Program-made: the position numbers and the translations under genes
The notes under the pieces: generated by a model
What the model was told of the DNA's origin: nothing
Databases searched by the model: none
What the model saw: only the letters and a program-made list of their open reading frames with translations
DNA from: Pseudomonadota bacterium
GTDB taxonomy: Bacteria; Desulfobacterota; Binatia; UBA1149
DNA: 64,000 nt
Direction of reading: 5' to 3'
Assembly: GCA_014382245.1 (NCBI GenBank)
Contig: JACNKC010000057.1
Span: forward strand, 174 to 64,173
Shown: piece by piece, positions 7,523-52,494 of the stretch
Layout of the letters: each line of letters begins with the position of its first letter
How positions within the stretch are numbered: position 1 is the stretch's first letter

Positions 7523-7551
7523 AGTATATTCGACCTGGCCGGCTATGACAA
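7523..7551 (-). promoter_or_regulatory. Sigma70-like promoter candidate for the Mo-enzyme/GRE operon
   Basis: The minus strand reads TTGTCA (7551-7546), a 17-nt spacer, then TATACT (7528-7523). It lies in the 121-nt gap between the CoA-transferase stop (7601) and the Mo-enzyme start (7479). Confidence 0.4.
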
Positions 7552-7600
7552 CGCTGAATGGGTGACAGTCTTCCCCCGCGATATACGGCCCGGCCAGTTG

Positions 7601-8848: not shown

Positions 8849-8933
8849 GGGGGTAATATTTTGACTCGCCCACGCTGTGTCCAATCCCGAAAGTGGGTTA
8901 TCGGACGCTTCCCCCTTTTGATAGGGTTCGCGC

Positions 8934-12674: not shown

Positions 12675-12676
12675 AG

Positions 12677-26251: not shown

Positions 26252-27829
26252 GTGGGCTGGGACAAGGAAACCGAGGGGATACGCGCGCGCCGCGAGGCCG
26301 CGCTGGCCATGGGTGGCGCCGAGGCCGTTGACCGTCAGCACGGCAAGGGCCGCCTGACGGTGCGCGAGCGTATTGACGTGCTGGTCGACGAGGGGAGCTT
26401 TGCCGAGCAGGGCCCGATGGCCGGTCACTCCGAGATCGACGACGAGGGACGCCTGGTCGAATTCACGCCGGGCAACTACGTGCTGGGCATGGCGCGCCTG
26501 GACGGTCGGCCCTGCGTGGTAGGGGGTGAGGATTTCACGCTCAAGGGCGGATCGCCCACGCCGGCCGGCCTGCGCAAGAGCGTCTACGCCGAGCAACTGG
26601 CCGTGCAGTACCGGGTGCCCCTGGTGCGCCTGCTCGAGGGTGGCGGCGGCAGCGTGGCCGGAACACGTGGCGGCAAGAACGCGGGCAAGGGTGGCGGCGG
26701 AGCCCACGCCGGCGATCCGGTTTACGTTACGCCCAGGTTCATGTCCTTTGCCGAGGCCATGGCGGCGGTGCCCGTGGTGTCGGTGGCACTGGGGCCGGTG
26801 GCGGGTTTCCCGGCTGCGCGCCTGGTGTCATCTCATTTCTCGATAATGGTGCGCGACACCTCGCAGGTGCTCATCGCCGGGCCGGCCGTCGTGGAGCGCG
26901 CGCTGGGCGAGAAGAAAACCAAGGAAGAACTCGGCGGCGCGGCCGTGCACATGCACAGCGGCGTGGTGGACAACCGGGCCGACGACGAAGCGGGTGCGCT
27001 GGCGCAGGTAAGGCGCTTTCTTTCCTACCTGCCCACCAACGTCTGGGAGCCGGCGCCCCGGGTGGCCCGCGACGACGATCCCGCCCGCGCCGAAAGCGAA
27101 CTCAACTCGATCATCCCGCGCGACCGTCGCAAGGCCTTCGACATCAGGCGGGTGTTGGAACTGGTATTTGACGCGGGCAGTTTCTTCGAGATGTCGGCCG
27201 GCTACGGGCCTTCGCAGGTCACCGGCCTGGCGCGGCTGGACGGACAGGCGGTGGGCGTGTGGGCCAACGACTGCCGCTTCTGGGCCGGCGCGATGGACGC
27301 CGACGGGGCGCAGAAGGCCAGGCGTTTCATTGACCTCTGTGACAGCTTTCACCTGCCTATTATCAGCCTGGTCGACGAACCCGGTTTCATGATTGGTACC
27401 GGGTCAGAGGCGGCCGGCACCATACGCTACGGCGCGCAGACCATATTTGCGGCCAACCAGTCATCGGTACCCTGGGCGGCGGTTCACCTGCGCAAGGCCT
27501 TCGGCGTGGCGGCCGCGGCCCATTTCGGCCCGGAGTCGTACGTGCTGACGTGGCCCTCGGCCGAAAGCGGTGCGCTGCCCGTCGAGGGTGGCGTGGCGGT
27601 GGCCTTCGGACGCGAGATAGCCGCCGCTGATGATCCCGACGCCCTTCGCAGCGAGCTGGAGGAACAGTTCGCCGCCTCGCGCACGCCGTTTCCCCGCGCC
27701 GAGTCTTTCGGAGTACACGATCTCATCGAGCCCGCCGAAACCCGCAGTCGCCTGTGCCGCTGGGTGGAGTGGATACAGCCACGCCTGGCCACGCTGGTGG
27801 GGCCCACCAGCCATTCGGTTCGACCCTAG
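26252..27829 (+). CDS. Acyl-CoA carboxylase carboxyltransferase (beta) subunit
   Basis: 525 aa. QHGKGRLTVRERIDVLVDEGSF.., PLVRLLEGGGGS and HLPIISLVDEPGFMIG are typical of PccB/AccD5-type carboxyltransferases. Confidence 0.88.
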   Translation: MGWDKETEGIRARREAALAMGGAEAVDRQHGKGRLTVRERIDVLVDEGSFAEQGPMAGHSEIDDEGRLVEFTPGNYVLGMARLDGRPCVVGGEDFTLKGGSPTPAGLRKSVYAEQLAVQYRVPLVRLLEGGGGSVAGTRGGKNAGKGGGGAHAGDPVYVTPRFMSFAEAMAAVPVVSVALGPVAGFPAARLVSSHFSIMVRDTSQVLIAGPAVVERALGEKKTKEELGGAAVHMHSGVVDNRADDEAGALAQVRRFLSYLPTNVWEPAPRVARDDDPARAESELNSIIPRDRRKAFDIRRVLELVFDAGSFFEMSAGYGPSQVTGLARLDGQAVGVWANDCRFWAGAMDADGAQKARRFIDLCDSFHLPIISLVDEPGFMIGTGSEAAGTIRYGAQTIFAANQSSVPWAAVHLRKAFGVAAAAHFGPESYVLTWPSAESGALPVEGGVAVAFGREIAAADDPDALRSELEEQFAASRTPFPRAESFGVHDLIEPAETRSRLCRWVEWIQPRLATLVGPTSHSVRP

Positions 27830-28854
27830 GGAATCAGCGCCAGGCGGATGGGCGAGTTTCGGCGAGAGTCGAGGTCGGCGAAGGCCGAGGCGGCGTCCTC
27901 GAGCGGGTAGCGTTCGGTTATCGATCGCGAAAGATCCAGCGTGCCCGCCGCCGCCATCTCTACCACGCGGTCAAGTTCGGTACGGGTGTAGCCCATCGAG
28001 CCGGTGATCGAGATCTCCTTGCCTATGAACGAGACCAGCGGTGGCAGGCGAGGGCGGTCGATGCCCACGCCGCCGAGCACCACGCGGCCGCTTCTTGCCA
28101 CGCAACGCAAGGCCAGCGAAACGGTGGCTTCGCCGCCTACGAATTCGATCACGCAGGCCGGTCCCTCGCCGCCCGCTGCCCTGCGAACCTGCCGATGGGC
28201 GTCGTCGGCGCGACCGTCCACGCAGACATTGGCACCGGCAGCGCGCGCTTTTTCCAGCGCGCCTTCGCTGGCGTCGATCGCTACCACGGTGCCTGCTCCC
28301 AGTATGCGAGCGAGCAACAAAACGTGGTAGCCAACGCCGCCGCAGCCTATTACGGCCAGGCTCTCGCCAGGCTGCAAGGCGCCGCGCGTAGCAACGGCGT
28401 GGTAGGCAGTGGCCACCGCGTCGGCCAGTATGGCCCCGTGTTCAAAGGGGAGGGTGTCGGGCAGCGGCAGCGTGCAGGAGGCCGAAGCGACTACGCGCTG
28501 AGCAAAAGTACCGTCGCGTGCCATGCCGAAAATCTGCGCGCTCGCGCACAGGCCCAGGTGCCCGTCAAGGCAGGGACCGCACTCGCCGCAGGTCTCGCTG
28601 GGCAACAACAACACGCGGTCGCCCACCGTGCGGTCGGTAACCCCGTCGCCGACCGCGGACACGACGCCGGCACCCTCGTGTCCCATGACTACCGGAAGGC
28701 CAGGCAGCGGTAAACGGCCGTGCACGGCGTGCAGGTCGGTGCCACACACGCCGGCGGCTTTTATATCTACGAGCACTTCGCCCGGGCCAGCGACGGGCTC
28801 GTCTACTTCTTCTACTTCGACCCTGTTTTCCGGGTGCAGTCTTACCGCTTTCAT
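27826..28854 (-). CDS. Zn-dependent alcohol dehydrogenase (MDR family)
   Basis: GVCGTDLH, GHEGAG, structural-Zn Cys cluster (CGECGPCLDGHLGLC) and GCGGVG Rossmann motif. Confidence 0.88.
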   Translation of the reverse strand: MKAVRLHPENRVEVEEVDEPVAGPGEVLVDIKAAGVCGTDLHAVHGRLPLPGLPVVMGHEGAGVVSAVGDGVTDRTVGDRVLLLPSETCGECGPCLDGHLGLCASAQIFGMARDGTFAQRVVASASCTLPLPDTLPFEHGAILADAVATAYHAVATRGALQPGESLAVIGCGGVGYHVLLLARILGAGTVVAIDASEGALEKARAAGANVCVDGRADDAHRQVRRAAGGEGPACVIEFVGGEATVSLALRCVARSGRVVLGGVGIDRPRLPPLVSFIGKEISITGSMGYTRTELDRVVEMAAAGTLDLSRSITERYPLEDAASAFADLDSRRNSPIRLALIP

Positions 28855-28877
28855 GTTCCTGTCTCCGCTGCCTGTTT

Positions 28878-30455
28878 TTACTCGGCGCCGTGTACGCCGC
28901 CTTCGGCGTTCTTCCAGTGGGGCTCGCGCAGGGCACGGCGCATGATCTTGCCGACCGGTGTCCTGGGAAGTTCGTCCATGATGTCGATTGCCTTGGGTAC
29001 CTTGAATCGCGCGAGACGCTCCTTGCAGAAGGCCAGAAGCTCTGCCTCGCTGGCGCTGGCCCCGGGCCTCAGCGAAACGGCAGCACGTATGGCCTCACCC
29101 CACTTGGGGTCCGGTATCGCGAAGACCGCGCAGTCGGCTACCGCGGGGTGCTCGGCGAGCTCACTCTCTACTTCGGCGGGGTATACGTTGAAGCCACCGG
29201 TTATGATCTTGTCTTCCTTGCGGTCGTCCAGGTAAAGGTAGCCACGTTGGTCGGTGTGTCCGAGGTCACCGGTGTAAAGCCAGCCGTTGCGGAGGCGGGC
29301 CTCGTCGAGTTCCGGGCGTTTCCAGAAACCCGGTGTCGTCCACGGCGCACTTACGCAGATCTCGCCGGTTTCGCCCACTTCCGCTTCCGCACCCGACTCG
29401 TCAACCACGCGCACCTGCGCGAAGGCCGGCCGCTCGCGTCCCACCGACCTGAGCCACTCGCCTTCCTGTTCGAGTGCCGCCGCGTGCTCGTCGGGGCCCA
29501 TGAAGGTGTTGAGTGCGTAGGCTTCGGTTTGTCCGAAGCCGGTGTAGAGCACGGGCCCCACGCGTTCGAAGGCGCGCTTGACCAGCGCCGGTGCCGCCGG
29601 CGCAGCGGCGTATACTATCGCCCGCAGGCTCGAAAGGTCGGCCTGCTCGGCGCCCGGGTGGTCGAGCAGCATGCGCAGCAGGGTGGGAATGATGAGCACC
29701 ATCGTTACCCGGTGTTTCTCGATGGCGGCTATCATCTCTTCGAGGTCGGGGGTGGGCAGGATGACCAGGGTAGCGCCACCCATCCAGCAGGTGTCCATGG
29801 CGCGGCCGCCGAAGTGGCTCAGGGCCAGCTGTCCGAGCAAGCGGTCGTCGGGGTTGACGTCGAAGCTGGTCTGCCAGGAACTCATGGCCGCGGCCACGCT
29901 TCCGTAACTGTGGGTCACTCCCTTGGGGTGGCCGGTGGTGCCCGAGGTATACAGTATCTGCGCGAGCGACGTTGCCGGGCGGTCCAGCGAGGGACGTTCG
30001 AAGGTTTCCTTGTTGGCCAGGGCCGACAGGTCGTGATCGGCCGCAGTGCTGGCGCCCGCGGTCGCATCGCCGGCCACCGATAGAACCGACGCTCCCCCGG
30101 CGGCCGCCCGTGCCCGCTCCACCCCCCTGGCCGACAGGCCGACCACGAAACTGGCCTCGGAGTCGTTGACCATGAAAGAGTGCTCGCTTTCGGTGAGCGC
30201 GCCCAGCAGCGGGACGATAGCTCCACCTGCGCGCGCGATGGCGATCACCGTCCGCACGTACTCTATCGTGTTCTCCTGCACCAGTGCCACGCGCTGGCCG
30301 GGTTCGAGCCCCAGGCCGATCAGTGCGCGCGAAAGTTGGGTGGCGCGTTCGTCGAGCTCGCGGTAGTCCACGCGGCGGTCGCCGTCGATGACGGCGGTTT
30401 GCTCGGGCCAGCTTCGCGCGGCGCGGGCTGGGTAATGGGAGTAGGGCGCTATCAC
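28878..30455 (-). CDS. AMP-dependent acyl-CoA synthetase/ligase
   Basis: AMP-binding motif LYTSGTTGHPKGV, TGD, and the C-terminal PRTPVGKI region. GTGA overlap with the upstream gene's stop. Confidence 0.9.
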   Translation of the reverse strand: MIAPYSHYPARAARSWPEQTAVIDGDRRVDYRELDERATQLSRALIGLGLEPGQRVALVQENTIEYVRTVIAIARAGGAIVPLLGALTESEHSFMVNDSEASFVVGLSARGVERARAAAGGASVLSVAGDATAGASTAADHDLSALANKETFERPSLDRPATSLAQILYTSGTTGHPKGVTHSYGSVAAAMSSWQTSFDVNPDDRLLGQLALSHFGGRAMDTCWMGGATLVILPTPDLEEMIAAIEKHRVTMVLIIPTLLRMLLDHPGAEQADLSSLRAIVYAAAPAAPALVKRAFERVGPVLYTGFGQTEAYALNTFMGPDEHAAALEQEGEWLRSVGRERPAFAQVRVVDESGAEAEVGETGEICVSAPWTTPGFWKRPELDEARLRNGWLYTGDLGHTDQRGYLYLDDRKEDKIITGGFNVYPAEVESELAEHPAVADCAVFAIPDPKWGEAIRAAVSLRPGASASEAELLAFCKERLARFKVPKAIDIMDELPRTPVGKIMRRALREPHWKNAEGGVHGAE

Positions 30456-31336
30456 TTGTTCCTGCCGCCTCCCTTGCCGCGGCCCGTAGGAGCAGCGCCA
30501 CCGGGCAGCTCCCTGTCGGCCGGGCCCGTGTAACTCGCGCCCAGTTCGGGCGTGATGATGCGCAGTGGCACGCCGTCGCGTATTTCTTCGACCACGTGGG
30601 CGAGCAGCGCCATGCCGTAACTGAGTGCGCCCAGGCCACCGGTCATCAGCGGATCAAAGCCGAGGTCTGACAGTACGGCGCCCAGCGCACCGGCAAGGTT
30701 TATGGGGATGAGCCTGCCCTTGCGCCGTGCCATTTCTTCTTCCACCGCGTCGAGCAGTTGCCCGTGCTCGTTCCAACCACCCAGCTCGCCCGCCAGCCGC
30801 CTGAGGGCCAGGACCCTGGGCTCGCCTTGCTTGTGCACGGGATGGCCCAGTCCGGGTACAGCGCCTCGGCGTTCGATCCAGGTGTCGATCAACTGCGCCG
30901 CGGCAGCCGCCGGTTCGAGCTCCAGGGCTACGCCTTCGATGAGCATCTCGGCGGGTTCCTGGGGTGAGCCGGTGACTGATCCACTGGCCAGCATGCCGCT
31001 CGCCAGCGCCGGTACGGGCGAATCGGGGGTGGCCGAGGCCGTGTAGCGAGCCGCGCAGGCCGCCGAGTTTATGAACTGCTGGTCCATGCCGCTGCGCAGC
31101 ACGAGGTCGAACAGGGCGGTTTCGCGTTCGTCGGCCAGCTCACCCCTGAGCAGCAGCCACGCGCTCTCGGTGTAAGACAGCCGCTCGATGAGTTCTTCTA
31201 TGCGGTAACCCCTCACTCGTATGTTGCCCTGCTCGGCACGGCTGATCGAAGTGCTCCAGTAGTCGCTCCAGTCGCCCGATGCCACGTACTGGCCGACGTG
31301 TCGTTTTGGTTTTTTGCCGCTTTTACCGTTGCCCAT
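30452..31336 (-). CDS. Citrate-synthase-fold protein (citryl-CoA-lyase-like, short form)
   Basis: 294 aa. IRVRGYRIEELIERLSYTESAWLLLRGEL.. and VPGLGHPVHKQGEPR resemble the citrate synthase / citryl-CoA lyase family. Call is by eye. Confidence 0.6.
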   Translation of the reverse strand: MGNGKSGKKPKRHVGQYVASGDWSDYWSTSISRAEQGNIRVRGYRIEELIERLSYTESAWLLLRGELADERETALFDLVLRSGMDQQFINSAACAARYTASATPDSPVPALASGMLASGSVTGSPQEPAEMLIEGVALELEPAAAAAQLIDTWIERRGAVPGLGHPVHKQGEPRVLALRRLAGELGGWNEHGQLLDAVEEEMARRKGRLIPINLAGALGAVLSDLGFDPLMTGGLGALSYGMALLAHVVEEIRDGVPLRIITPELGASYTGPADRELPGGAAPTGRGKGGGRNK

Positions 31337-31357
31337 GTTGGTCTCTCCCGCTGCCGG

Positions 31358-32149
31358 TTATCTGCCCTTGAAAACGGGTTTACGTTTATCGAGAAAAGCC
31401 CGCGGTCCTTCCTGCGCGTCTTCGCTCTGCCGCACGGGTTCGGCCAGCAGTTGCTCCAGGCGCAGGCCTTCTTCCAGGGGAAGGTCGAGCCCACGCAACA
31501 CCGCCGCCCGCGCGGCCTGTACGGCCAACGGCGCGTTGGCGGCTACGAGTCCGGCCAGCTCGGTGGCCTGTTCGAGCAGGTCGGCGGCATCCACCACGCG
31601 GCTCACCAGTCCTACCCGCAGCGCTTCTTCGGCGTCCAGGCGTCGCCCGCTCATGATCATGTCCAGGGCGACCGACGGTCCTACCAGCCGCGGCAGGCGC
31701 TGGGTGCCGCCGGCGCCTGGTATGAGCCCGTGCGTGACCTCGGGCAGGCCGAAGCTGGCCGTGTCGGCGGCCAGGCGAATGTCGCAGGACAACGCGAGCT
31801 CGAGCCCACCGGCCAGGCAGGCCCCGTTTATCGCGGCGATGATGGGTTTCTCGATTCGCATGTTACGCGTCAGTCCGCCCAAGCCGGGCTGTTGCTCTGA
31901 GCGGCGCAGTCGTTCGGTCGGGCCCAGGTTCCGGTAGAACTCGCCCACGCCCCTCATGTCGGCGCCCGAGCAGAAGGCCTTGTCGCCGGCCCCCGTGAGC
32001 ACGGCTACGCGCAGGTCCGGGTCGTCGTTGAAGCGTCGCCAGGTAGCCACCAGCTCGTCGCTGGCATCGAAGTCGAGCGCGTTGCGCACTTCGGGGCGGT
32101 CGATCGTGACAAGCGCCACGCCGCCTGTTGTTTCAAAGAGTATGCTCAT
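31358..32149 (-). CDS. Enoyl-CoA hydratase/isomerase (crotonase) family
   Basis: VALVTIDRPEVRNAL, FCSGADM, and AAINGACLAGGLELALSCD. Confidence 0.9.
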   Translation of the reverse strand: MSILFETTGGVALVTIDRPEVRNALDFDASDELVATWRRFNDDPDLRVAVLTGAGDKAFCSGADMRGVGEFYRNLGPTERLRRSEQQPGLGGLTRNMRIEKPIIAAINGACLAGGLELALSCDIRLAADTASFGLPEVTHGLIPGAGGTQRLPRLVGPSVALDMIMSGRRLDAEEALRVGLVSRVVDAADLLEQATELAGLVAANAPLAVQAARAAVLRGLDLPLEEGLRLEQLLAEPVRQSEDAQEGPRAFLDKRKPVFKGR

Positions 32150-32607
32150 GTCTTTTTCCCCGTGCTGGCCTCGCTTGTGCCGGTGGTTCCTCCGCTGGTC
32201 GGTTCGAAGCGGGGAATTTTCCGGTCGCCCGCCTGTTCAAACACCAGCTGCACTCTCATGCCGGTGCGCACTGCGTCGGAATCGAGCCCCGTTACGTTCG
32301 ATACCATGCGCGGGCCCTCGTCCAACTCTATGACCGCCACGACGTAGGGCGGTGGTATCGCGGGGTGGTAGCCGTGGCGGTAGACGGTGTACGTCACGAC
32401 CTGTCCGCGGCCGCTCGCCGCGTGCTGGTCGATATAGCTTGACCAGCAGCGCGGACAGCAGGGGCCGGGGGGCAGGAAGTAGTGCCCGCAGTCGCGGCAG
32501 TGCGTCATCATCAGCGATCCGTGTTGGCAGGCTTCCCAGAACGACGCCGTCAGTTGGTCATCTGCGGGCGCGGGGTGCGCGGTTTTCGTGGCTGCCTTTT
32601 CCTCCAT
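32146..32607 (-). CDS. DUF35 Zn-ribbon/OB-fold protein (BbsA / ChsH2-C-terminal type thiolase partner)
   Basis: 153 aa. Four-Cys ribbon CRDCGHYFLPPGPCCPRC followed by an OB-fold region. ATGA and TGATG overlaps with both neighbours. Confidence 0.85.
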   Translation of the reverse strand: MEEKAATKTAHPAPADDQLTASFWEACQHGSLMMTHCRDCGHYFLPPGPCCPRCWSSYIDQHAASGRGQVVTYTVYRHGYHPAIPPPYVVAVIELDEGPRMVSNVTGLDSDAVRTGMRVQLVFEQAGDRKIPRFEPTSGGTTGTSEASTGKKT

Positions 32608-33746
32608 CAGCGATCTGCTCCCAGCAGAAGTCCGGTGTGTGTGTTCATGCCGAGTCCGTGGCCCGAAACCAGGGCCACGCTCGCGTCAGCTACCTGTCGC
32701 TCACCGGCCTCGCCTCGCAACTGCCGCACGGCCTCGATTACGTGCATCATGCCGCCGCCGTAGCACTCGGCCAGCAGGCCGCCGCTGGTATTCACCGGCA
32801 GGCGGCCGCCGGGAGCGATGCCGCCGTTTTCTACGAACGAACCTGCCTCGCCGCGTGCGCAGAACCCGTAGTCTTCCAACTGCATGAGCAGAACTATGCT
32901 GAAGCAGTCGTACAACAGCGCGAGGTCGACGTCCGACGGCTCGAGGCCCGCCCGCTCGAACAAGCGTGGCGCAGAGCGCGCGGCGGGCAGTTGGTCAAAG
33001 TGCGTGCCATTGCCCATGGTCTGAAGGCTGTGGGCCTGGGCCTGCGAAAGCACGCGCACGGTACTTCGTTCGAGTCGCGCGGCGCGTTCGGCCGACAGCA
33101 CGAGCACGGCGGCCGCACCGTCAGACACCATGCAACAGTCCAACGCCCGCAGCGGTTCGGCCACCGGCTTGCTAGCCAGGTAATCGTCCATGCTGAGCAA
33201 CTCCCTCTTCAGGGCATGGGGCGTGAGCGCTGCGTGGGCGCGTGCGGCCAGCACCACTTCGCCCAGCTGTTCGGGCCGGGTACCGTAGTTATGCGCGTGG
33301 CGGCGCGCGGCCAACGCGTGCATTCCCACTGCACCGAAAAACCCGAAAACCGCGTCGTCGCCGCGGCCGTAGCCGAAGGCGGCGGGCTGCGACAGTGGGC
33401 TGTCTCCATACACGCACAGGCAGGCCGAGCACAGGCCGGCCTCAACGGCCAGCACCGCGCGGCCCACTATGCCCACGCTACCGGCTCCGCCCAGGATCTC
33501 GGAGCCGGCGTAGTCCGGGTCCAGCCCGAGCTGGGCCCCGAGGCGCAAAAAATGCGGAGTTATCCCGTCCAGTATTCCCTGCGCGGGCCCCGGATCGGTA
33601 AGCAGGCCGTCAACGTCGCCGGGCTCCAGCCCGGCATCGGCCACCGCCGCCCTCGCCGCGGTGGTTTCGAGCTGCCACGGTGTGAGGCCGGGCAGGCGGC
33701 CGAATTCGCTGTGCCCCACGCCTGCTATGACCGCGCCTCTGCTCAA
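32607..33746 (-). CDS. SCPx-type thiolase-like protein (lipid-transfer-protein / BbsB type)
   Basis: AVIAGVGHSEFGR.., LDCCMVSDGAAAVLVLS, and C-terminal NTSGGLL..GHGLG. Start assigned to TTG 33746, which forms a TTGA overlap with the ACAD stop. The track ORF extension to 33896 lies inside the ACAD gene. Confidence 0.82.
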   Translation of the reverse strand: MSRGAVIAGVGHSEFGRLPGLTPWQLETTAARAAVADAGLEPGDVDGLLTDPGPAQGILDGITPHFLRLGAQLGLDPDYAGSEILGGAGSVGIVGRAVLAVEAGLCSACLCVYGDSPLSQPAAFGYGRGDDAVFGFFGAVGMHALAARRHAHNYGTRPEQLGEVVLAARAHAALTPHALKRELLSMDDYLASKPVAEPLRALDCCMVSDGAAAVLVLSAERAARLERSTVRVLSQAQAHSLQTMGNGTHFDQLPAARSAPRLFERAGLEPSDVDLALLYDCFSIVLLMQLEDYGFCARGEAGSFVENGGIAPGGRLPVNTSGGLLAECYGGGMMHVIEAVRQLRGEAGERQVADASVALVSGHGLGMNTHTGLLLGADR

Positions 33747-34900
33747 GCGACCCCCGCCGGCATGCGTCGCTTGGCAATTATTTCGCGCATGATCTCGCTC
33801 GTGCCCGCTCCCACTCCCCAGTTCTGAACGCCGCGGGCGCAGCGGGCCACGTAGTTTTCTTTCATGAAGCCGTAGCCACCGTGGGCCTGGGCGCATTCGA
33901 GCACGAGGTCGCGCGTGAGTTCAGCGCCGTAAAGCTTGGCCATGCTCACGGTGGTTTCTCCCTGCGGATCTCCCTCGCAGAGTTCTTCGGCGGCGCGGTA
34001 ACTGAGCAGCTCGGAGGCTTCGAGTCGGGTCATGAGATCGGCCATGCGGTGGCGCCACACCTGCATCGAGGCCAGCGGACGACCGAAGGCCTTGCGCTGG
34101 GCCATGTAGTCAAGCGTTTCTTCGAGTACGTCACGGCACAGCGAGTTCATCATTGCCGACAGCACCAGGCGTTCCCCCTGGAAGGCCTGCATGATGTAGC
34201 CGAAGCCCGCGCCTTCTTCGCCCACGAGGTAGCGCCGCGGAACGCGCACGTTGTCGAAGAACAGCTCGGCGGTGTCGCCCGAGTGCAGGTCCACTTTTTC
34301 CAGCGGGCTGCCGACCTGGTAGCCCGGCGAGTCGGTGGGGCACACCAGTATGCTCACTCCGCGCGGGCCCGGGCCGCCGGTGCGCACGGCGAGGGTAACG
34401 AAGTCGGCGCGTACGCCGTTGGATATGAAGATCTTCGATCCGTTTATGATGTAGTCGTCGCCGTCGGCGACCGCAGAGGTAGTGAGGGCCGCCACGTCAG
34501 AGCCGCCGCCGGGCTCGGAAACGCCCAGCGCAGCTATTTTTTCGCCCTTGATGGCGGGCAGGAGCCACTGGTCGCGCAGCTGGTCGCTGCCGTGCGCGTG
34601 GATTATCCCCGTGGCCATTTCGCACTGCACGAGCAGGCCCACCACGCTACCCATGTCGCGGCCACGGGCCAGTTCTTCGACCAGGATCACCGTGTACCAG
34701 TAGTCCAGTTCGCTGCCGCCCCAGCGCGCGGAGTAGCGCACTCCGAGCAATCCCAGGTCGCCGGCCTTGCGAATCAGCTCGTCTGGAAAACGGCCTTGCT
34801 GTTGCCACTGCTCGGCGTTGGGCAGGATCTCGTCGCGCGTGAATCGTCGCACCGTTTGCCTGAATGCCTCGTGTTCTTCGGTCCACCGGGGAAAACTCAT
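33743..34900 (-). CDS. Acyl-CoA dehydrogenase
   Basis: 385 aa. ALGVSEPGGGSDVAAL, catalytic-base region YEGTSEI-like (GAGTSEIMREII). SD AAGAGGAA lies upstream. Confidence 0.92.
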   Translation of the reverse strand: MSFPRWTEEHEAFRQTVRRFTRDEILPNAEQWQQQGRFPDELIRKAGDLGLLGVRYSARWGGSELDYWYTVILVEELARGRDMGSVVGLLVQCEMATGIIHAHGSDQLRDQWLLPAIKGEKIAALGVSEPGGGSDVAALTTSAVADGDDYIINGSKIFISNGVRADFVTLAVRTGGPGPRGVSILVCPTDSPGYQVGSPLEKVDLHSGDTAELFFDNVRVPRRYLVGEEGAGFGYIMQAFQGERLVLSAMMNSLCRDVLEETLDYMAQRKAFGRPLASMQVWRHRMADLMTRLEASELLSYRAAEELCEGDPQGETTVSMAKLYGAELTRDLVLECAQAHGGYGFMKENYVARCARGVQNWGVGAGTSEIMREIIAKRRMPAGVA

Positions 34901-34930
34901 CGTTTGTTCCTCTTGTCCGGGTTGGCTCGC

Positions 34931-35569
34931 CTAGCGCGCTGCCTTGCCGGGTAGCAATATGCCGCGGGCGAAAACGTCGTCCATGAGTGGCAGCATTTCA
35001 TCGAGATCGTAGTCGTGGGTGTCGAGCATCTCGCGTTCAACCAGCACACGGCCGAGGTGGAACATCAGGTAGGCCACCCGCTCGGGGTCAACGCGACGCA
35101 GAACCTTCTGCCTGATGCCTTCTTCGATCACTCGCTGCAACAGGCCGATGATGCGCGATTCCTGGTCACGGGTAAACGCGTGTGCCGCGGTTTCGAGGGT
35201 CATCTCGGGGTCGCCGGCCAGTGCGTGACCGAGTACGTTGTCGCGGCGGTAGTTCTGCCTGGTGAGTTCTACTACGGTGCGCATTTTTTTGCGTGCGCTG
35301 TTTCCGCCGGCGTTGCCGCTCACAATTTTCTCGGCCTTCGCGATGAAGAACTCGGCGTCGCGCTCAAGCAGGCTGATGTAAAGGTCTTCCTTGTTGCGGA
35401 AGTGTGCGTAGAGGGTAGTGCGCGAGCAGCCGGCCTCGCGGGCGATCTCGTCCATGGTGGTCTTGCGCGGCCCGAAGCGCAGAAACCGCCGGTTAGCCGC
35501 TTCGAGTATCGCTTGGCGTGCGCCGGCGGTGTCCGCGCCGGTCCTGCTGCCCGTTCCTGTCGTCGCCAT
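34931..35569 (-). CDS. TetR-family transcriptional regulator
   Basis: N-terminal HTH FGPRKTTMDEIAREAGCSRTTLYAHFRNKEDLY. It is the first gene of the minus-strand CoA operon and lies 30 nt upstream of the ACAD gene. Confidence 0.88.
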   Translation of the reverse strand: MATTGTGSRTGADTAGARQAILEAANRRFLRFGPRKTTMDEIAREAGCSRTTLYAHFRNKEDLYISLLERDAEFFIAKAEKIVSGNAGGNSARKKMRTVVELTRQNYRRDNVLGHALAGDPEMTLETAAHAFTRDQESRIIGLLQRVIEEGIRQKVLRRVDPERVAYLMFHLGRVLVEREMLDTHDYDLDEMLPLMDDVFARGILLPGKAAR

Positions 35570-35574
35570 GCCAG

Positions 35575-35607
35575 CAACTTAACATTTGACGTTTGTTTGT
35601 CAAGTTG
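35575..35607. promoter_or_regulatory. Candidate TetR operator in the divergent intergenic region
   Basis: Inverted repeat TTGAC-N8-GTCAA (35586-35603), flanked by CAACTT / AAGTTG. It starts 6 nt beyond the tetR start codon. The left arm is imperfect, interrupted by 5 nt. Confidence 0.35.
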
Positions 35608-35678
35608 TTAGGGTAGCGTCCGGCTGGAGGCGGTTGGCCACAAGCACCGCCGCAGTGAACGGGGAGAAGAACAACGAC

Positions 35679-36533
35679 ATGGCAGAAAAAGCAGGAGCAA
35701 TTGACGCGTGGGCAACACTGATGCTGCCGGGCAGGTTTGACCGCTGGCCCGAGGAGTTCAAGCACATCTTCCGCCGTTACAGCAGCATAGACCTGTTCGA
35801 AAAGGGTATGACCCCCGAGCAGATGATAGAGCACATGGACGCTGCCGGTGTCGATAAGGTTATGTTCTCGGCCTTTGGCTACGGCGACCTCGAGTTGTTG
35901 AGCAACCAGGAGGTGGCCGAGATATGCGCGAAGTATCCGGATCGCTTCGTAGGCGTGGGCACGGTGGACCCGCGCGGTAAGCCGATGGACGTGGCCCGCG
36001 AAGTTGAAAAACTTGGACGCGAGTACGGCATGAAGGGTGTTCGCCTGGAACCCTACGCCTACGGTGACGGTATGACCGGCGCGCCGCCGAACGGCAAGAT
36101 GTACTGGCCCGTGTACATGAAGTGCGTGGAGCTGGACATGGCCGTGTGCATGCAGGTAGGCCACACCGGCCCGCTGCTGCCATCGGAGGCCGGGCGTCCG
36201 ATCTACATCGACGAGATCGCGCTGTCGTTTCCCGAATTGACCATCGTTGGCTGTCACCTGGGCCAACCGTGGCACGAGGAGATGATGATACTGGCGTGGA
36301 AGCACCCCAACGTTTATGTCGAGACCAGCGCGCGCACGCCCAAGCACTGGCCGCCGTCTTTCGTTGACTTCGTCAAGGGCTGGGGCCGCGACAAGGTGTT
36401 GTGGGCCACCGATTACCCGCTGCTGACCTTTGAGCGCACGCTCAAGGAACTACGCGATCTTGGAATCGACGACGAGATCTACAACAAGGTGGTGCGCGAA
36501 AACTGCGTGCGCGCTTTCAAGCTGGACAAGTGA
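35679..36533 (+). CDS. Amidohydrolase-2 family protein (ACMSD/LigW-like TIM-barrel hydrolase/decarboxylase)
   Basis: MAEKAGAIDAWATLM.., DAAGVDKVMFSAFGY, RFVGVGTVDP and KVLWATDYPL match the Amidohydro_2 layout. ATG 35679. Confidence 0.8.
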   Translation: MAEKAGAIDAWATLMLPGRFDRWPEEFKHIFRRYSSIDLFEKGMTPEQMIEHMDAAGVDKVMFSAFGYGDLELLSNQEVAEICAKYPDRFVGVGTVDPRGKPMDVAREVEKLGREYGMKGVRLEPYAYGDGMTGAPPNGKMYWPVYMKCVELDMAVCMQVGHTGPLLPSEAGRPIYIDEIALSFPELTIVGCHLGQPWHEEMMILAWKHPNVYVETSARTPKHWPPSFVDFVKGWGRDKVLWATDYPLLTFERTLKELRDLGIDDEIYNKVVRENCVRAFKLDK

Positions 36534-36564
36534 GCAGGGCCCCGCGGAAGAAGAGAGCTTGAGC

Positions 36565-37014
36565 GTGGACGCGGCGGCGATGGGAGCCAACCTGGAGCGT
36601 ATTCCCTTTACGCTGGAGATGGGCCTGGTCATAGAGCGACTGCAGGACGGCGAAACGCACATGCTGCTGCCGGCTGGACGGGGCAATCACAACCTGGTGG
36701 GCACGGTACACGCCGGGGCGGTGTTCACCTTTGCAGAAACCGTGGCCGGCGTAGCTGCCGGTGCCGACACGCTCGAGCACGGGTTTCCCTTCGTGCGCAG
36801 CGCCCGGGTGCGCTACCTGAGACCGGGTGACGGCGAGTTGCACGGGCACGCGAGCGTGGAGGCCGAAGACGTAGCGCGGGTGCTGGCCGAGTTGAGCGAG
36901 TACGGTCGTTCGAGACTCAGCGTGTCAGTCAAGATCGAAGACACCGAAGGGCGGCTGGTGGCCGAGCTCGACGTCGACTACGCCTTCAGACCGATAGCGG
37001 GGGAGAAAAAATGA
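36565..37014 (+). CDS. PaaI/hotdog-fold thioesterase-like protein
   Basis: NLVGTVHAGAVFTFAETVAG is a hotdog motif. Start is GTG 36565 (after GGAAGAAGAGAG) or ATG 36580. ATGA overlap with the next gene. Confidence 0.7.
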   Translation: MDAAAMGANLERIPFTLEMGLVIERLQDGETHMLLPAGRGNHNLVGTVHAGAVFTFAETVAGVAAGADTLEHGFPFVRSARVRYLRPGDGELHGHASVEAEDVARVLAELSEYGRSRLSVSVKIEDTEGRLVAELDVDYAFRPIAGEKK

Positions 37015-37793
37015 ACGAACTACTGAGAAGCGAAATCAACGACGGCGTGGTGACCATAACGCTGACGCAACCCGGCAACATGAACGCGCTCAGCCTGGGC
37101 ATGCTCGACGTCCTGATGGAGGCCCTCGACCGGGCCGCCGCCGATGACAGCGTGAGAGTGGTCGTGCTTGCCGCCGAGGGCAAGGTGTTTTGTGCGGGTG
37201 CCGATCGGGCCGAGATGATAGAGCGCGAACCCGCCGAGTGGGAACCCATCGTGGATCGTTATCTCGATCCCGTGCGCGCGATAGCGGGCATGGACAAGCC
37301 GGTGGTGGCGCGCCTGCACGGCGACACGGTCGGGGGCGGATTCGGACTGGCGATGGCCTGCGACTTCAGGGTGGCCGTGGAGGGCATACGGCTGGGCGCG
37401 CCGTTTGTTCGCATTGGACTGGCCGGTTGTGACATGTCGGCCGGGTATTTTCTTCCACGCTTGATCGGCCTGGGCGCGGCCACCGAGATGATGATGACCG
37501 GCCGCCTGGTCAAGGCCGAAGAGGCCCTGGCCATGGGCCTGGTTCACCGCGCGGTCGCGGTTGACCAGCTGGACGATGAACTGGCCGAGCTCGTGGGGCG
37601 GCTGAGGAACGGGCCGCCGATAGCGTTGGCGTTTACCAAGCGCGCGATCAGGCGTTCGCTGGATCGCGACATGAATTCGGAGTTCGACTACGAGGTATTT
37701 GCCCAGGTGCAGTGCATACAGACCGAGGATCATCGCGAGGGGGTGAAGGCGTTTTTCGACGAGAAGCGCGCGCCGATTTTTCGTGGAAAGTAG
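37011..37793 (+). CDS. Enoyl-CoA hydratase/isomerase family
   Basis: VVTITLTQPGNMNAL, FCAGADR, and ARLHGDTVGGGFGLAMACD. Confidence 0.9.
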   Translation: MNELLRSEINDGVVTITLTQPGNMNALSLGMLDVLMEALDRAAADDSVRVVVLAAEGKVFCAGADRAEMIEREPAEWEPIVDRYLDPVRAIAGMDKPVVARLHGDTVGGGFGLAMACDFRVAVEGIRLGAPFVRIGLAGCDMSAGYFLPRLIGLGAATEMMMTGRLVKAEEALAMGLVHRAVAVDQLDDELAELVGRLRNGPPIALAFTKRAIRRSLDRDMNSEFDYEVFAQVQCIQTEDHREGVKAFFDEKRAPIFRGK

Positions 37794-37816
37794 CAGGCAG
37801 GACGGGAGCAGGGTTC

Positions 37817-38965
37817 ATGGCTGAAGCAGATTTTTACTTGAGCGAGGAGCAACGGTCGTTGCAGTCGACCTTGCGCGACTTTGTCGCTGCCGAGGTGGAG
37901 CCGCTCGCCCAGGGGGCCGACGATGACGAGCGCTTTCCGGTGCAGGTGTTGCGCAAACTGGGTGGGCTTGGCTATCTCGGACTGCGTTTCCCCGTTGAGG
38001 TGGGCGGGGCGGGGGGTAGCAACCTCGACTACGCGGTCATGTGCGAGGAGATGGCGCGCGGCTCGGCCGGTATAGCGCTGGGAGTGTACGTCCACACGGC
38101 GCTGGCCTGTTCGGCCTTGACGGAGTTCGCGTCCGATGATTTGCGCGAACGCTGGCTCGCCCCGGCACTGCGCGGCGAGGCCATCGGCGGCTGGGCTTTT
38201 GCCGAGGCCGGGGCCGGGTCTGACGCCGCGTCGATTACTACCAGCGCCGCCGTCGATGGCGATGACTACGTTCTCAACGGCGCCAAGATGTACATCACCA
38301 ATGGCACCATAGCCGACTTCCTGGTGGTGGTCGCCTCCACGACGCCGGGGCAGGGGCTCAAGGGTCTGTCGTTGTTTCTCGTGGAGGCCGACCGTCCCGG
38401 TTTCAAGGTCGCTCGCCCCTTGTCCAAGCTTGGGGTTCGGGCTTCGGAGATGGCCGAGCTTGTTTTCGAAGACTGCCGGGTGCCGCGTGAAAACCTGCTG
38501 GGAAGAGAGGACAAGGGTTTCCTCGACGCGCTCAGGGTGCTGGTGTTCGGTCGCATAGCGTCGGCGGCTTTCGCCGTAGGGATCTCTCGTGCGGCGTTGG
38601 AGGCCACGGTCGAGCATGTGCGCGAGCGGCGGCAGTTCGGTGTGTCGGTCGGTAGCTTCCAGGCGGTGCGCTTCGGGGTCGCCGACATGGCCATGCAGAT
38701 AGAGGCGGCCCGCCTGCTTTGTCACCGGGCAGCCATCGCTGCCGACCGGGGTTTGCCTCACGGCCGTGAAGCGTCGATGGCCAAGCTTTTTGCCACCGAG
38801 ACATGCACGCGCGTGGTCGAGCGAGCGTTGCATTACCACGGGGCAACGGGATTCATGTCGGACTCCCCGGTGCAGCGTTACTACCGCGACTGCAAAGTGT
38901 TCGAATTCGGCGAAGGCTCAAGCGAACTGCAGCGCGAGATGATCGCGCGCGAGCTGGGTCTCTGA
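37817..38965 (+). CDS. Acyl-CoA dehydrogenase
   Basis: MAEADFYLSEEQRSLQ.., GWAFAEAGAGSDAASI and FEFGEGSSELQREMIAREL. ATG 37817; the track ORF starts at 37712. Confidence 0.92.
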   Translation: MAEADFYLSEEQRSLQSTLRDFVAAEVEPLAQGADDDERFPVQVLRKLGGLGYLGLRFPVEVGGAGGSNLDYAVMCEEMARGSAGIALGVYVHTALACSALTEFASDDLRERWLAPALRGEAIGGWAFAEAGAGSDAASITTSAAVDGDDYVLNGAKMYITNGTIADFLVVVASTTPGQGLKGLSLFLVEADRPGFKVARPLSKLGVRASEMAELVFEDCRVPRENLLGREDKGFLDALRVLVFGRIASAAFAVGISRAALEATVEHVRERRQFGVSVGSFQAVRFGVADMAMQIEAARLLCHRAAIAADRGLPHGREASMAKLFATETCTRVVERALHYHGATGFMSDSPVQRYYRDCKVFEFGEGSSELQREMIARELGL

Positions 38966-39014
38966 GCCGAGGGGGAGTATCCCCCTCGGGCTTTCTTTCT
39001 GATAGAGGGGAAGC

Positions 39015-39992
39015 ATGAACGTGGAATACGGAACCTTCGTACCGCAGGGCTGGCGCATGGAGATGCAGCATCTCCAGGGCGGCCAATCCCAGTGGAATGT
39101 CTTGACCGCGAGCGCGCGCGCGCTTGAAGACGCTGGCTACGACTCGTTGTGGTTGTACGACCACTTTCACACCGTGCCGCGTCCGGCCATGGAGCCGACC
39201 TTCGAGTGCTGGAGTACGATGGCCGCTCTGTCGCAGGTGACAAGCCGAGTGCGCCTGGGCCAGCTGGTGACCTGCAGCGCCTATCGCAACCCGGCTTACC
39301 TCGCCAAGCTGGCCAGCTGCGTTGACGTGATGAGCGGCGGCAGGGTCGACCTTGGAATAGGCGCCGGCTGGAAGACCGAGGAGTTCGAAGCCTACCAGTA
39401 CCCGTTTGCCGGCATACGCGAGCGCCTCGACCGCATGGCCGACACGGCGCGTATCTGCCGCGCGATGTTCACGGACGAGAAAGCCACCGTAGAGGGAGTG
39501 TACCACCGGGTGACCGACGCCATCAACGAGCCAAAGCCCGTGCAGGCCGGGGGGCCCCCGATCTGGATAGGCACGCAGGGCGAAAAAGTCGGCCTGCGCA
39601 TGGTGGCCGAAGTGGCCGACGGCTGGAACCATAACCGTGGGCCCGACGAGTACGAGCGCAAGCGCGAGATCCTTGCAGGGCATTGTCGCGACCGCGGCCG
39701 CGACCCCGACAGCGTGCGCATATCAGTGGAGAACACCTGCGTGATCTACGAGAGCGAAGCCGAGCTACGTGATTTTGCCGCTCGCTGGTGGCCGCACTAC
39801 AACGAGAAACAACTCACCAGGTTCCTGGCCAACTGCTGGACCGGGAGGGCCGAGGATATCGCGGCCGAGATAAGGTTTTTTACCGAGCGGGGAGCGTCGC
39901 TGGTGATCTGCTGGTTCCAGGACCTCTGTGACGCCGGCAATGAGGATTCGCAGGCGCAGCGATTTATGCGCGAGGTCGTGCCGCTGGTCTGA
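39015..39992 (+). CDS. Luciferase-like (LLM class) flavin/F420-dependent oxidoreductase
   Basis: AGYDSLWLYDHF, LGIGAGWKTEEFEAYQYPF, and SD GAGGGGAAG upstream. Confidence 0.85.
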   Translation: MNVEYGTFVPQGWRMEMQHLQGGQSQWNVLTASARALEDAGYDSLWLYDHFHTVPRPAMEPTFECWSTMAALSQVTSRVRLGQLVTCSAYRNPAYLAKLASCVDVMSGGRVDLGIGAGWKTEEFEAYQYPFAGIRERLDRMADTARICRAMFTDEKATVEGVYHRVTDAINEPKPVQAGGPPIWIGTQGEKVGLRMVAEVADGWNHNRGPDEYERKREILAGHCRDRGRDPDSVRISVENTCVIYESEAELRDFAARWWPHYNEKQLTRFLANCWTGRAEDIAAEIRFFTERGASLVICWFQDLCDAGNEDSQAQRFMREVVPLV

Positions 39993-40040: not shown

Positions 40041-40078
40041 GCCCGCCACCCGTCACGGTCAAATGAAGGGTGGCGGGC
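40041..40078. terminator. Bidirectional terminator hairpin
   Basis: Perfect 11-bp stem GCCCGCCACCC / GGGTGGCGGGC with a 16-nt loop. It is centred in the 102-nt gap between convergent genes (ends at 39992 and 40095). No clear U-tract. Confidence 0.55.
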
Positions 40079-52310: not shown

Positions 52311-52395
52311 CAAGTCTATCAAGTGTCAATTGAAGTGCAAGTCTGACTTGACAAAGGGGGTAGGGAGGGGTTATTTATGATTCAAGTGAGACTTG
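52311..52395 (+). promoter_or_regulatory. Operator cluster and promoter between tetR and the acylase gene
   Basis: Palindromes CAAGTC-T-GACTTG (52338-52350) and CAAGT-GAG-ACTTG (52383-52395), plus further CAAGT/GAAGT half-sites at 52311, 52320 and 52332. TTGACA (52348-53), 18 nt, then TATTTA (52372-77). Confidence 0.45.
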
Positions 52396-52494
52396 AGAAG
52401 CCGTGGCGGTGCCCGTGGGGCCGTCACCGACCGGCACCGCGACGCGCCGGCCGAAATTGGCTATGCTACTGAAAACACTGGAGGAAAGGGCATC

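Follow-up and report, generated by a model that had tools for sequence, protein, structure and literature searches.

Steroid side chains are cleaved by retro-aldolases that have the SCP2-thiolase fold without its nucleophilic Cys, such as Ltp2-ChsH2 of Thermomonospora curvata and M. tuberculosis and Sal-Shy of Comamonas testosteroni. A short motif separates these enzymes from their thiolytic relatives: Ltp2 has YDHF together with Tyr344, Sal has YDCY with a catalytic Cys, the trypanosomal SLP has YDCF, and true SCP2 thiolases have HDCF. An enzyme that lacks the nucleophilic Cys, or has a Gly in its place, cannot act thiolytically (PMC12329534). Other described routes combine an aldolase or lyase with an amidohydrolase. 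The 2,3-seco ring-A route of Sterolibacterium denitrificans comprises SRAH, an amidohydrolase-2 that hydrolyzes a beta-diketone, along with a ligase, an acyl-CoA dehydrogenase (ACAD), an acetate-releasing hydrolase, an enoyl-CoA hydratase (ECH) and an aldolase (PMC11780191). The thn operon of the anaerobic naphthalene degraders N47 and NaphS2 encodes ThnN, a candidate ring hydrolase of the amidohydrolase superfamily, together with a lyase whose site of action is a tertiary hydroxylated carbon (PMC12016498). Here, we describe a cluster of CoA-pathway genes arranged around a divergent tetR gene in a 64,000-nt stretch of contig JACNKC010000057.1, from a bacterium of the Binatia. This whole stretch, hereafter the window, is from a 65% GC metagenome contig, and the same locus is found, identical, on ENA ERZ24794647 NODE_3074.

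The cluster looks like one for a modified beta-oxidation, and its gene set has, as far as we found, not previously been assigned to a pathway. From domain content, catalytic residues and gene neighborhoods, we consider it probable that the cluster forms a conserved, TetR-repressed catabolic unit of 12 genes, in which a carboxylic acid would be degraded as its CoA thioester along a beta-oxidation-like route ending in retro-aldol cleavage. An earlier, sequence-only reading of this DNA had listed 13 open reading frames (ORFs), and a Pfam search agreed with all thirteen domain assignments at the same coordinates. That reading had also proposed a modified beta-oxidation of a bulky, branched or cyclic acid, which domain and residue analysis bears out in outline, and it had held that the substrate is not deducible from the sequence, which we uphold. 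NCBIfam equivalog profiles were run on 14 proteins, the 13 ORFs and a convergent carboxyltransferase. None of the 12 cluster proteins reached a cut-off, the only protein to pass being a neighboring luciferase-like monooxygenase-type (LLM) oxidoreductase (TIGR03560). The models for BbsA/B, cyclohexanecarboxyl-CoA dehydrogenases, Had, FadD3, CasG, EchA19, PaaG and AcuR all stayed far under threshold. We found no orthologous cluster already assigned to a known pathway in the NCBIfam equivalogs or the literature, and no published pathway for this gene set in the literature. A scan of one genome per GTDB species, seeded with the citryl-CoA-lyase-like (CCL-like) protein of the cluster, gave 80 related loci.

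The retro-aldol step is assigned to the SCP2-thiolase-fold protein (32607-33746, minus strand, TTG start; Pfam Thiolase_C_1), whose PDB matches are 4U4E and TcLtp2 (6OK1, E = 2e-56). Its nucleophile site reads GG(A)(S/G)S and has no Cys in any of 58 orthologues; because this nucleophile is missing, thiolysis is excluded. At the site of the thiolase HDCF motif, all 58 orthologues have Y279-D-C-F, in keeping with the YD(H/C)(F/Y) pattern of Ltp2 and Sal. Tyr279 aligns with TcLtp2 Tyr294 and Tyr329 with TcLtp2 Tyr344; Tyr329 is found in 54 of the 58, the other 4 having Phe, and Cys281, at the Sal acid position in YDC, is invariant. The protein thus has both the Sal-position Cys and the Tyr at the Ltp2 Tyr344 position. 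A catalytic Tyr, a general acid (the Cys of YDC in Sal, Tyr344 in Ltp2) and a DUF35 partner are features of the Sal/Ltp2 retro-aldolases, and we predict that this protein, previously labelled an SCPx-type thiolase, is a retro-aldolase of the Sal/Ltp2/SLP type and not a thiolytic enzyme.

The same residues bear on whether the cluster runs an ordinary thiolytic beta-oxidation of acids, be they fatty, dicarboxylic or with an aromatic side chain, through a DUF35/thiolase pair like BbsAB, which we consider very improbable. Its generic content would suit such a route, with a ligase, two ACADs, two crotonases, a dehydrogenase and a thiolase-fold protein, and many proteobacterial versions of the cluster have Liv-type ABC transporters and a second ligase at their flanks. 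There are also NCBIfam matches to BbsA and BbsB. These are weak, however, at 31 bits against a cut-off of 250 for BbsA and 97.5 bits against 750 for BbsB, and thiolysis would have to proceed with 0 of 58 thiolase-fold orthologues retaining the nucleophilic Cys. Moreover, one of the two crotonases cannot hydrate, both of its Glu being gone, and the dehydrogenase is a generic Zn-dependent alcohol dehydrogenase (ADH), not a 3-hydroxyacyl-CoA dehydrogenase. Of the two precedents offered earlier for the DUF35/thiolase pair, Ltp2-ChsH2 therefore fits, whereas BbsAB, given the absent Cys and the sub-cut-off Bbs scores, does not.

The DUF35 protein (32146-32607, minus strand; Pfam zf-ChsH2 and OB_ChsH2_C) is a stand-alone polypeptide of 153 aa with a Zn ribbon and an OB fold. 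Its canonical C4 finger, C37-x2-C40-x10-C51-x2-C54, is invariant in 45 orthologues. In related loci, its gene always adjoins the thiolase-like gene, with which it shares a 1-nt overlap in the window. A DUF35 partner next door, with an ACAD and a hydratase as the preceding enzymes in the operon, is an arrangement shared with the Ltp2 and Sal systems. Unlike in those systems, the DUF35 protein is not fused to MaoC, the hydratase is a crotonase, identity to TcLtp2 is moderate and there is no steroid gene context.

These differences also enter into the case for a steroid or bile-acid degradation module, either as a Sal/Ltp2 side-chain member or as a counterpart to the anaerobic 2,3-seco ring-A route, a case we judge decidedly improbable. 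It draws on the homology of the thiolase-like protein to TcLtp2, with the YDC motif of Sal and SLP and the DUF35 partner, on sterol-desaturase-type FA_hydroxylase genes that flank 10 related loci, and on a cytochrome P450 gene about 6 kb off in the window. The 2,3-seco route further resembles the cluster in using the same enzyme classes on a CoA ester, amidohydrolase-2 included, and in the aldolytic release of acetyl-CoA from a hindered 3-hydroxyacyl-CoA, a likeness by class. On the other side, the hydratase is not of the MaoC/ChsH or Shy type, the DUF35 protein stands alone, and no Rieske, KstD, Hsa or 1-TDH (molybdoenzyme) gene adjoins the cluster in the window, where the molybdopterin oxidoreductase at 4567-7479 lies 20 kb away in another unit. 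SRAH runs as a 40-kDa band, whereas the amidohydrolase-2 of the cluster (AH2) is shorter, at 284 aa, and falls in a subfamily that lacks the HxH motif. The CCL-seeded genome scan recovered no known steroid degrader, whether Sterolibacterium, Denitratisoma, Thauera, Comamonas or actinobacteria, and none of the known 2,3-seco organisms. The thn operon is similar in its beta-oxidation-like breakdown of alicyclic CoA esters, with ACADs, several crotonase-fold enzymes and an amidohydrolase-superfamily member. It differs in having the AtuA-like lyase ThnQS, true thiolases and aryl-CoA reductases, with no CCL-like protein and no DUF35/aldolase pair. Membership of the cluster in either the 2,3-seco or the thn system is not supported: the surroundings hold neither 1-TDH nor aryl-CoA reductase genes, the proteins fall into other subfamilies, and the scan recovered none of the known degraders.

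Four cluster proteins depart from the canonical catalytic residues of their families, among them the short CCL-like protein (30452-31336, minus strand; Pfam Citrate_synt, 93 bits). It has the short C-terminal fold seen in citrate synthase, the CCL module of ATP-citrate lyase and the citryl-CoA lyase of H. thermophilus, the last being its best PDB match (6HXP, E = 9e-37), and it scores 182 bits against the NCBIfam citryl-CoA lyase subfamily, for which the cut-off is 212. We mapped its residues by alignment to the 6HXP lyase and several citrate synthases, using pig citrate synthase numbering. Gln86 stands at the position of the catalytic His274 and Ala215 at that of Asp375, the equivalents of His320 (His165, in GHPxHK) and Arg329 (in EPR) are kept, and GSVTGSPQE replaces the substrate-binding motif GPLHGGA. 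One of the three residues of the citrate synthase/citryl-CoA lyase catalytic triad is thus retained. The earlier term citrate-synthase-like was apt for the fold, but the protein is better described as a short citryl-CoA-lyase homologue without two of the three catalytic residues.

This Gln/Ala state is present in 74 of 78 CCL-like sequences, the window copy included, and these 74 are all of the cluster-linked members. The four outliers (L085, L086, L088 and L090, from Anaerolineae bins, at 42-44% identity) keep the His and Asp, in PDHQF and NIDGM, and tblastn found no other cluster genes near them save a weak ADH-like match. The outlier match lies at about 10001-10850 in both L085 and L086. 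In the wider short-CCL group, most representatives at the 50% identity level likewise keep DH and NxDG. Because the Gln/Ala state tracks genomic context while the wider group retains the catalytic residues, the cluster-linked clade appears to be a neofunctionalized branch.

Next to the CCL-like gene is that of an AMP-forming acyl-CoA synthetase (28878-30455, minus strand; Pfam AMP-binding and AMP-binding_C). The nearest PDB entries of this ligase are FadD8, feruloyl-CoA synthetase and FadD13, and it stays under every NCBIfam equivalog cut-off. The two genes are adjacent in nearly all related loci and are the most conserved gene pair of the cluster. Pairing a CCL-like gene with one for a CoA-thioester-forming enzyme is also seen in the citryl-CoA lyase system, where, in contrast, the partner is a citryl-CoA synthetase of the succinyl-CoA-synthetase type and the lyase has its catalytic His and Asp. 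We did not use as evidence a possible fusion of ligase and CCL-like protein (P0291, 275 aa), which seems to be either a fragment or the result of a gene miscall.

Citrate-synthase-fold enzymes normally condense. DUF35 complexes occur in condensing systems too (PMC12329534). The aldolase/DUF35 pair and the CCL-like protein might on these grounds build a branched metabolite, condensing as the archaeal thiolase/HMG-CoA-synthase/DUF35 system or PhlABC does. We find such a biosynthetic role hardly credible. The two ACADs, the TetR with its divergent operator, and the transporters and extra ligases of related loci are hallmarks of catabolism, and annotation of the window revealed no polyketide synthase, nonribosomal peptide synthetase, HMG-CoA synthase or tailoring genes.

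Two sister clusters, one from a Nanopelagicales bin (L092, 3473-14879) and one from a Nitrospirota bin (L093, 308-12615), have neither the CCL-like protein nor the ligase and instead carry a beta-keto acid cleavage enzyme (BKACE; PF05853). They retain orthologues of AH2 (63-66% identity), of the canonical hydratase ECH_A (58%), of its partner dehydrogenase ACAD_A (44-48%), and of the second crotonase and second dehydrogenase, ECH_B (60-61%) and ACAD_B (50-52%). An ADH orthologue (42%) is present in the Nanopelagicales locus only. Both sister clusters also encode two divergent thiolase-like paralogues that differ from that of the window, one of them without a Pfam match. BKACE enzymes act on free beta-keto acids supplied by dehydrogenases, as in the pairing of carnitine dehydrogenase with BKACE.

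The sister clusters open up a different entry into the pathway. In this version the pathway would start from a beta-hydroxy or beta-keto acid. The Zn-ADH would make the beta-keto acid, the ligase and CCL-fold protein would act as BKACE does, by CoA activation and removal of a C2 or C4 fragment, and the remaining genes would degrade the shortened acyl-CoA. The exchange of CCL-like protein and ligase for BKACE amid otherwise orthologous genes agrees with this, as does the strong conservation of the CCL-ligase pair, but we regard it as unlikely. The CCL fold here lacks the His/Asp pair for enolizing or protonating acetyl-CoA, there is no known chemistry for retro-Claisen cleavage by this fold, and the exchange is seen in two sister loci only, where the thiolase-like genes differ too, so that the replacement is not one-for-one. 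A bolder proposal, which we hold to be quite unlikely, would have the ligase and the His/Asp-less CCL-fold protein carry out a new activation and C-C-cleavage step as a counterpart of BKACE. A Sal/Ltp2-like aldolase, an AH2 without its metal site and a PaaG-like isomerase would then dismantle a beta-oxygenated alicyclic or isoprenoid-derived acid, for example from carboxyl-rich alicyclic or terpenoid dissolved organic matter, in a pathway so far confined to uncultured bacteria from numerous lineages.

For the preferred retro-aldol route, the dehydrogenases and crotonases supply the earlier steps. ACAD_A (33743-34900, minus strand; Pfam ACAD N, M and C domains) has an invariant E243 (QGERLVL) and an Ala at the MCAD-Glu376 position in 58 of 58 orthologues, placing its catalytic Glu at the isovaleryl-/long-chain-type position. 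A Glu at that position suits branched or bulky acyl groups. ECH_A (31358-32149, minus strand; Pfam ECH_1) is a canonical crotonase-type hydratase, with both hydratase Glu, E117 and E137, invariant in 62 orthologues. The crotonase-fold ECH_B (37011-37793, plus strand), also called an enoyl-CoA hydratase in the sequence-only reading, lacks both catalytic Glu: the two positions are Gly or Cys and Phe in 54 of 54 orthologues. In the PDB, it best matches the T. thermophilus crotonases 6SLB, 6SL9 and 3HRX (E = 5e-48), presumably structures of the PaaG isomerase. Asp141 is invariant in the 54 orthologues and aligns with an Asp of the 6SLB chain that we take to be the catalytic Asp of PaaG. From these matches and residue states, ECH_B is predicted to be a PaaG-like enoyl-CoA isomerase and not a hydratase. 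Its context is unlike that of PaaG, as no other paa genes are present and ECH_B is invariably paired with an ACAD. That partner, ACAD_B (37817-38965, plus strand; Pfam ACAD domains), is always found with ECH_B in related loci and has an MCAD-type Glu, E352 (FGEGSSE), in 45 of 46 orthologues.

The last gene of the minus arm encodes the Zn-ADH (27826-28854; Pfam ADH_N and ADH_zinc_N), an NAD-dependent member of the MDR family. The catalytic Zn ligands C37, H59 and D145, the structural Zn ligands Cys89, Cys92, Cys95 and Cys103, and Asp194, which indicates NAD preference, are all invariant in 58 orthologues. Its best PDB match is a generic ADH (1RJW), and its gene is kept in all cluster types. Generic or uncharacterized neighbors were all that PDB searches gave for the ADH, the ligase, TetR and the hotdog-fold protein. 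This last protein (36559-37014, plus strand; Pfam DUF4442, YiiD_C and 4HBT), a putative thioesterase, has the hypothetical protein PA5026 (1SH8) as its nearest PDB entry.

AH2 (35679-36533, plus strand; Pfam Amidohydro_2) is a TIM-barrel protein without an NCBIfam match. Its beta-strand 1 has an invariant D9-A-W11-x-T/S in place of the HxH of ACMSD/LigW-type enzymes, as placed by strand position, which we infer to be the equivalent site. The later ligand residues H162, H193 and D245 are invariant. In a Foldseek search with an AlphaFold model (pLDDT 85.7), the closest structure was the uncharacterized BB4693 (3IRS, TM 0.79); decarboxylases, the LigJ hydratase and LigI-like lactonases followed at similar scores, so no single reaction type emerges. 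With the HxH motif absent, the analogy drawn before between AH2 and metal-dependent aromatic decarboxylases is weak.

The gene set is kept across many lineages. Homologues of the CCL-like protein at 68-78% identity occur in many metagenome bins, and none of the 80 related loci comes from a named cultured species. The bins are labelled Myxococcota/'Deltaproteobacteria', Binatia, Chloroflexota, Rokubacteria, Hyphomonadaceae, Parvularculaceae, Rhodobacteraceae, Burkholderiaceae (Rubrivivax, Ideonella, Lautropia), marine Gammaproteobacteria and, in a few cases, Spirochaetaceae or Acidimicrobium. When the window proteins were compared with the loci by tblastn, about 50 loci kept the set of ACAD_A, thiolase-like protein, DUF35, ECH_A, CCL-like protein, ligase, ADH, AH2, ECH_B and ACAD_B at 40-77% identity. 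These loci are from bins labelled Myxococcota, Binatia, Hyphomonadaceae/Parvularculaceae, Rhodobacteraceae, Burkholderiaceae/Rubrivivax/Ideonella and marine Gammaproteobacteria. The hotdog gene is variable, being present in about half of the related clusters.

Three gene orders were observed. The window order, with its divergent tetR, is found in Myxococcota and Binatia bins. In the proteobacterial order, ADH-ACAD_B-ECH_B-(hotdog)-AH2-ECH_A-ACAD_A is divergent from thiolase-like-DUF35-CCL-ligase, and in the co-linear order, seen in L070 and L078, all genes lie on one strand. Because genes of the plus and minus arms swap strands freely among these orders, the two arms are best seen as one functional unit. 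Co-regulation of the arms, on which the sequence-only reading depended, is in agreement with this reshuffled synteny and with a shared operator-like palindrome, as far as sequence can tell. The Chloroflexota versions are reduced: what remains is ADH, CCL-like protein, ECH_B and ACAD_B along with extra crotonases, and a family III CoA-transferase is often present as well. Taken with the sister clusters, these arrangements suggest three modules: ADH with ECH_B and ACAD_B; AH2 with ECH_A, ACAD_A and the thiolase-like/DUF35 pair; and an exchangeable module that may serve CoA activation, consisting of ligase and CCL-like protein, of BKACE, or of transferase and CCL-like protein.

Several families recur at the flanks of other loci, namely a second ligase, a third, Glu-less crotonase, a third ACAD, a family III CoA-transferase, FA_hydroxylase and a Liv-type ABC transporter. 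The window has none of them near its cluster, and its only CoA-transferase is 27 kb away. The FA_hydroxylase is a membrane protein of the sterol-desaturase di-iron type, and its gene lies directly beside the cluster in 10 loci of varied lineages (L007/L056, L029, L030, L031, L033, L034 at 12429-13112, L036, L046 and L064), but not in the window.

The first gene of the minus arm encodes the TetR-family regulator (34931-35569; Pfam TetR_N, 55 bits), which has only weak matches to characterized TetRs in NCBIfam and the PDB. In loci with the window arrangement, its place is taken by orthologues of 57-65% identity. A TTGAC-N8-GTCAA repeat noted earlier between the two arms is indeed present at 35586-35603, occurring once in the window against 0.03 expected. 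By aligning the tetR upstream regions of all loci with the window arrangement, we found it to be the core of a 31-bp palindrome, TAACAnnTTGAC-N8-(G/A)TCAAnTGTTA (35580-35610), whose full pattern is matched exactly, and once, upstream of tetR in 14 fetched loci (12 distinct, after the window contig itself and one duplicate record; L001, L056). An N-terminal helix-turn-helix domain together with a conserved palindrome in its own promoter region marks the protein as a probable TetR-family repressor, and the palindrome as its putative operator. Each inner arm of the palindrome can be taken for the -35 box of a promoter, the two promoters lying back to back. The putative minus-strand promoter would have a -35 box TTGACA (35603-35598), a 16-nt spacer and a -10 box TAAGTT (35581-35576), with the tetR ATG at 35569. 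Since this ATG lies 6 nt past the -10 box, the transcript would be nearly leaderless. The plus-strand promoter would have TTGACG (35586-35591), a 17-nt spacer and TAGGGT (35609-35614). Both -10 boxes start with the 'TA' of the outer arms of the palindrome, and a TAnnnT hexamer is found at the plus-side -10 position in 9 of 10 loci inspected by eye.

In the proteobacterial version, a different TetR gene follows ACAD_B. The divergent region of this version, between ACAD_A and the thiolase-like gene, has a conserved palindrome of its own, TTGAgTAnnACTCA...ATCAA, with the core TGAGT-N3-ACTCA inside TTGA...TCAA (L008, L010, L017, L030 and others). Elsewhere in the window, two further TetR genes (50151-50768, plus strand; 51618-52250, minus strand) flank a gene for a short-chain dehydrogenase/reductase (SDR) and precede a 770-aa penicillin-amidase-family gene (52393-54705). 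The product of the second resembles the TetR of the proteobacterial cluster (33-36% over about 110 N-terminal residues).

We propose the following scheme. TetR would bind the 31-bp palindrome, one repressor shutting both arms until a pathway ligand releases it. The AMP-forming ligase would convert the acid to its acyl-CoA, ACAD_A would put in a 2-enoyl bond, and ECH_A would hydrate this bond to give a 3-hydroxyacyl-CoA. The thiolase-fold protein and DUF35 would then cleave the 3-hydroxyacyl-CoA by retro-aldol reaction, with Tyr279 as the base and Cys281 or Tyr329 as the acid, yielding acetyl- or propionyl-CoA and an aldehyde or ketone. The Zn-ADH may interconvert alcohol and carbonyl, acting on either the retro-aldol product or the entry substrate. 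A second module of ACAD_B, ECH_B, AH2 and the hotdog protein could dehydrogenate a second time, move a double bond and carry out a hydrolysis, either opening a ring, lactone or beta-dicarbonyl or cleaving a thioester. The CCL-fold protein, without its enolizing His/Asp pair, would have a repurposed role, probably in or just after activation. This chemistry fits an acid whose beta-carbon becomes a tertiary or hindered alcohol, such as a beta-branched, isoprenoid-like or alicyclic acid. Pathways resort to steps of this kind where the beta-carbon is tertiary or lies in a ring, and the 2,3-seco and thn routes follow a similar logic.

Several observations weigh against this scheme. The nearest solved homologue of the thiolase-fold protein, 4U4E, is uncharacterized, and the aldolase call rests on residue patterns. 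The Chloroflexota versions have neither the aldolase nor AH2, and the aldolase may therefore not belong to the core of the pathway. The roles given to AH2, the hotdog protein and the CCL-like protein are guesses, and the scheme leaves a non-CoA carbonyl product that only the ADH is there to process. All of the related loci stem from metagenome bins. As to regulation, a consensus promoter scan called no promoter in the intergenic region because each of the two weak -10 hexamers fits the consensus at 3 of 6 positions only, so that the proposed promoters are drawn from comparative conservation.

If the scheme is correct, the cluster represents a widespread, unstudied route for acids that ordinary beta-oxidation cannot complete. 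Its occurrence in bins from marine, sediment, groundwater and wastewater sources, in lineages without cultured members, may then mean that the substrate is a branched or alicyclic compound abundant in the environment. Broad conservation is here combined with a restriction to uncultured bacteria, with altered catalytic residues in four proteins, and with a loss of residues in the CCL fold that correlates with genomic context. The thiolase-like protein would be a non-steroid thiolase-fold aldolase and, as such, a target for enzymology, as are the CCL-fold protein and the AH2 lacking the metal-binding HxH. The operator/repressor pair is suited to ligand screening, which could reveal the substrate.

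The genes of each arm are closely packed. As described earlier, they are joined by TTGA, TGATG, ATGA and GTGA overlaps or gaps of at most 30 nt. Reading the junctions places TTGA between ACAD_A and the thiolase-like gene, TGATG between the thiolase-like and DUF35 genes, GTGA between the CCL-like and ligase genes, and ATGA at both the DUF35/ECH_A and hotdog/ECH_B junctions; the remaining gaps are 21-30 nt. The best start of AH2 is the ATG at 35679, in agreement with the N-termini of 284-aa homologues. We moved the start of ACAD_B to the ATG at 37817, which gives the N-terminus MAEADFYLSEEQ, a 23-nt gap and a 382-aa product, in line with orthologues of 380-382 aa.

The functional unit is 12 genes, 11 of them for enzymes or enzyme partners and one for the TetR regulator. 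It had been taken for a divergon of 13 genes whose plus arm runs through the LLM gene (F420-type; 39015-39992, plus strand) to a perfect 11-bp hairpin at 40041-40078. The TetR-centred divergon of CoA-pathway genes stands, and so does that hairpin, GCCCGCCACCC...GGGTGGCGGGC, which lies between the convergent LLM gene and a gene for a 1212-aa FG-GAP protein (-32.3 kcal/mol, z = -2.15, no U-tract). A stronger terminator-like hairpin, however, is found upstream, right after the ACAD_B stop and ahead of the LLM start (38967-38989, plus strand). It has a 10-bp stem with 8 GC pairs and a 3-nt loop, followed by the T-rich GCTTTCTTTC, and the 60-nt segment 38955-39014, which contains it and a second stem-loop, folds at -32.3 kcal/mol (z = -2.95). 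It is here, and not at 40041-40078, that the plus-arm operon most likely stops. The LLM gene is missing from nearly all related clusters, tblastn of the related loci giving two weak matches only (29-32%). Because a terminator-like hairpin separates LLM from ACAD_B and LLM is not conserved in related clusters, we count 12 genes and not 13, and LLM is probably an adjacent gene, rejected as a member for its lack of synteny.

At the other end, an AccD/MmdA-like carboxyltransferase gene (26252-27829, plus strand; 525 aa) converges on the Zn-ADH gene, the two gene ends overlapping by 4 nt. No biotin-carrier or biotin-carboxylase partner lies nearby. The gene is not cluster-linked in other loci and was likewise rejected as a member; a geranyl-CoA-carboxylase/Atu-like reading was dropped for the same reason, the carboxyltransferase not being syntenic elsewhere. 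The 1212-aa protein beyond LLM (40095-43733, minus strand), whose gene converges on LLM, has FG-GAP repeats and a Dictyostelium-type repeat.

Outside this region, the window has varied catabolic genes, with no hallmark of a specific pathway that would name the substrate. Among them are genes for a glycyl-radical enzyme with its activase, a molybdopterin oxidoreductase, a family III CoA-transferase, TauD dioxygenases, a P450, several SDRs, a second LLM and a penicillin amidase. Some of these form a row on the minus strand at 914-9412, which comprises a radical-SAM activase (914-2020), an 839-aa glycyl-radical enzyme (2031-4550; PFL-like and Gly_radical domains), the molybdopterin oxidoreductase (970 aa, 4567-7479) and the family III CoA-transferase (about 7661-8809). 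This row could be an anaerobic glycyl-radical catabolic unit.

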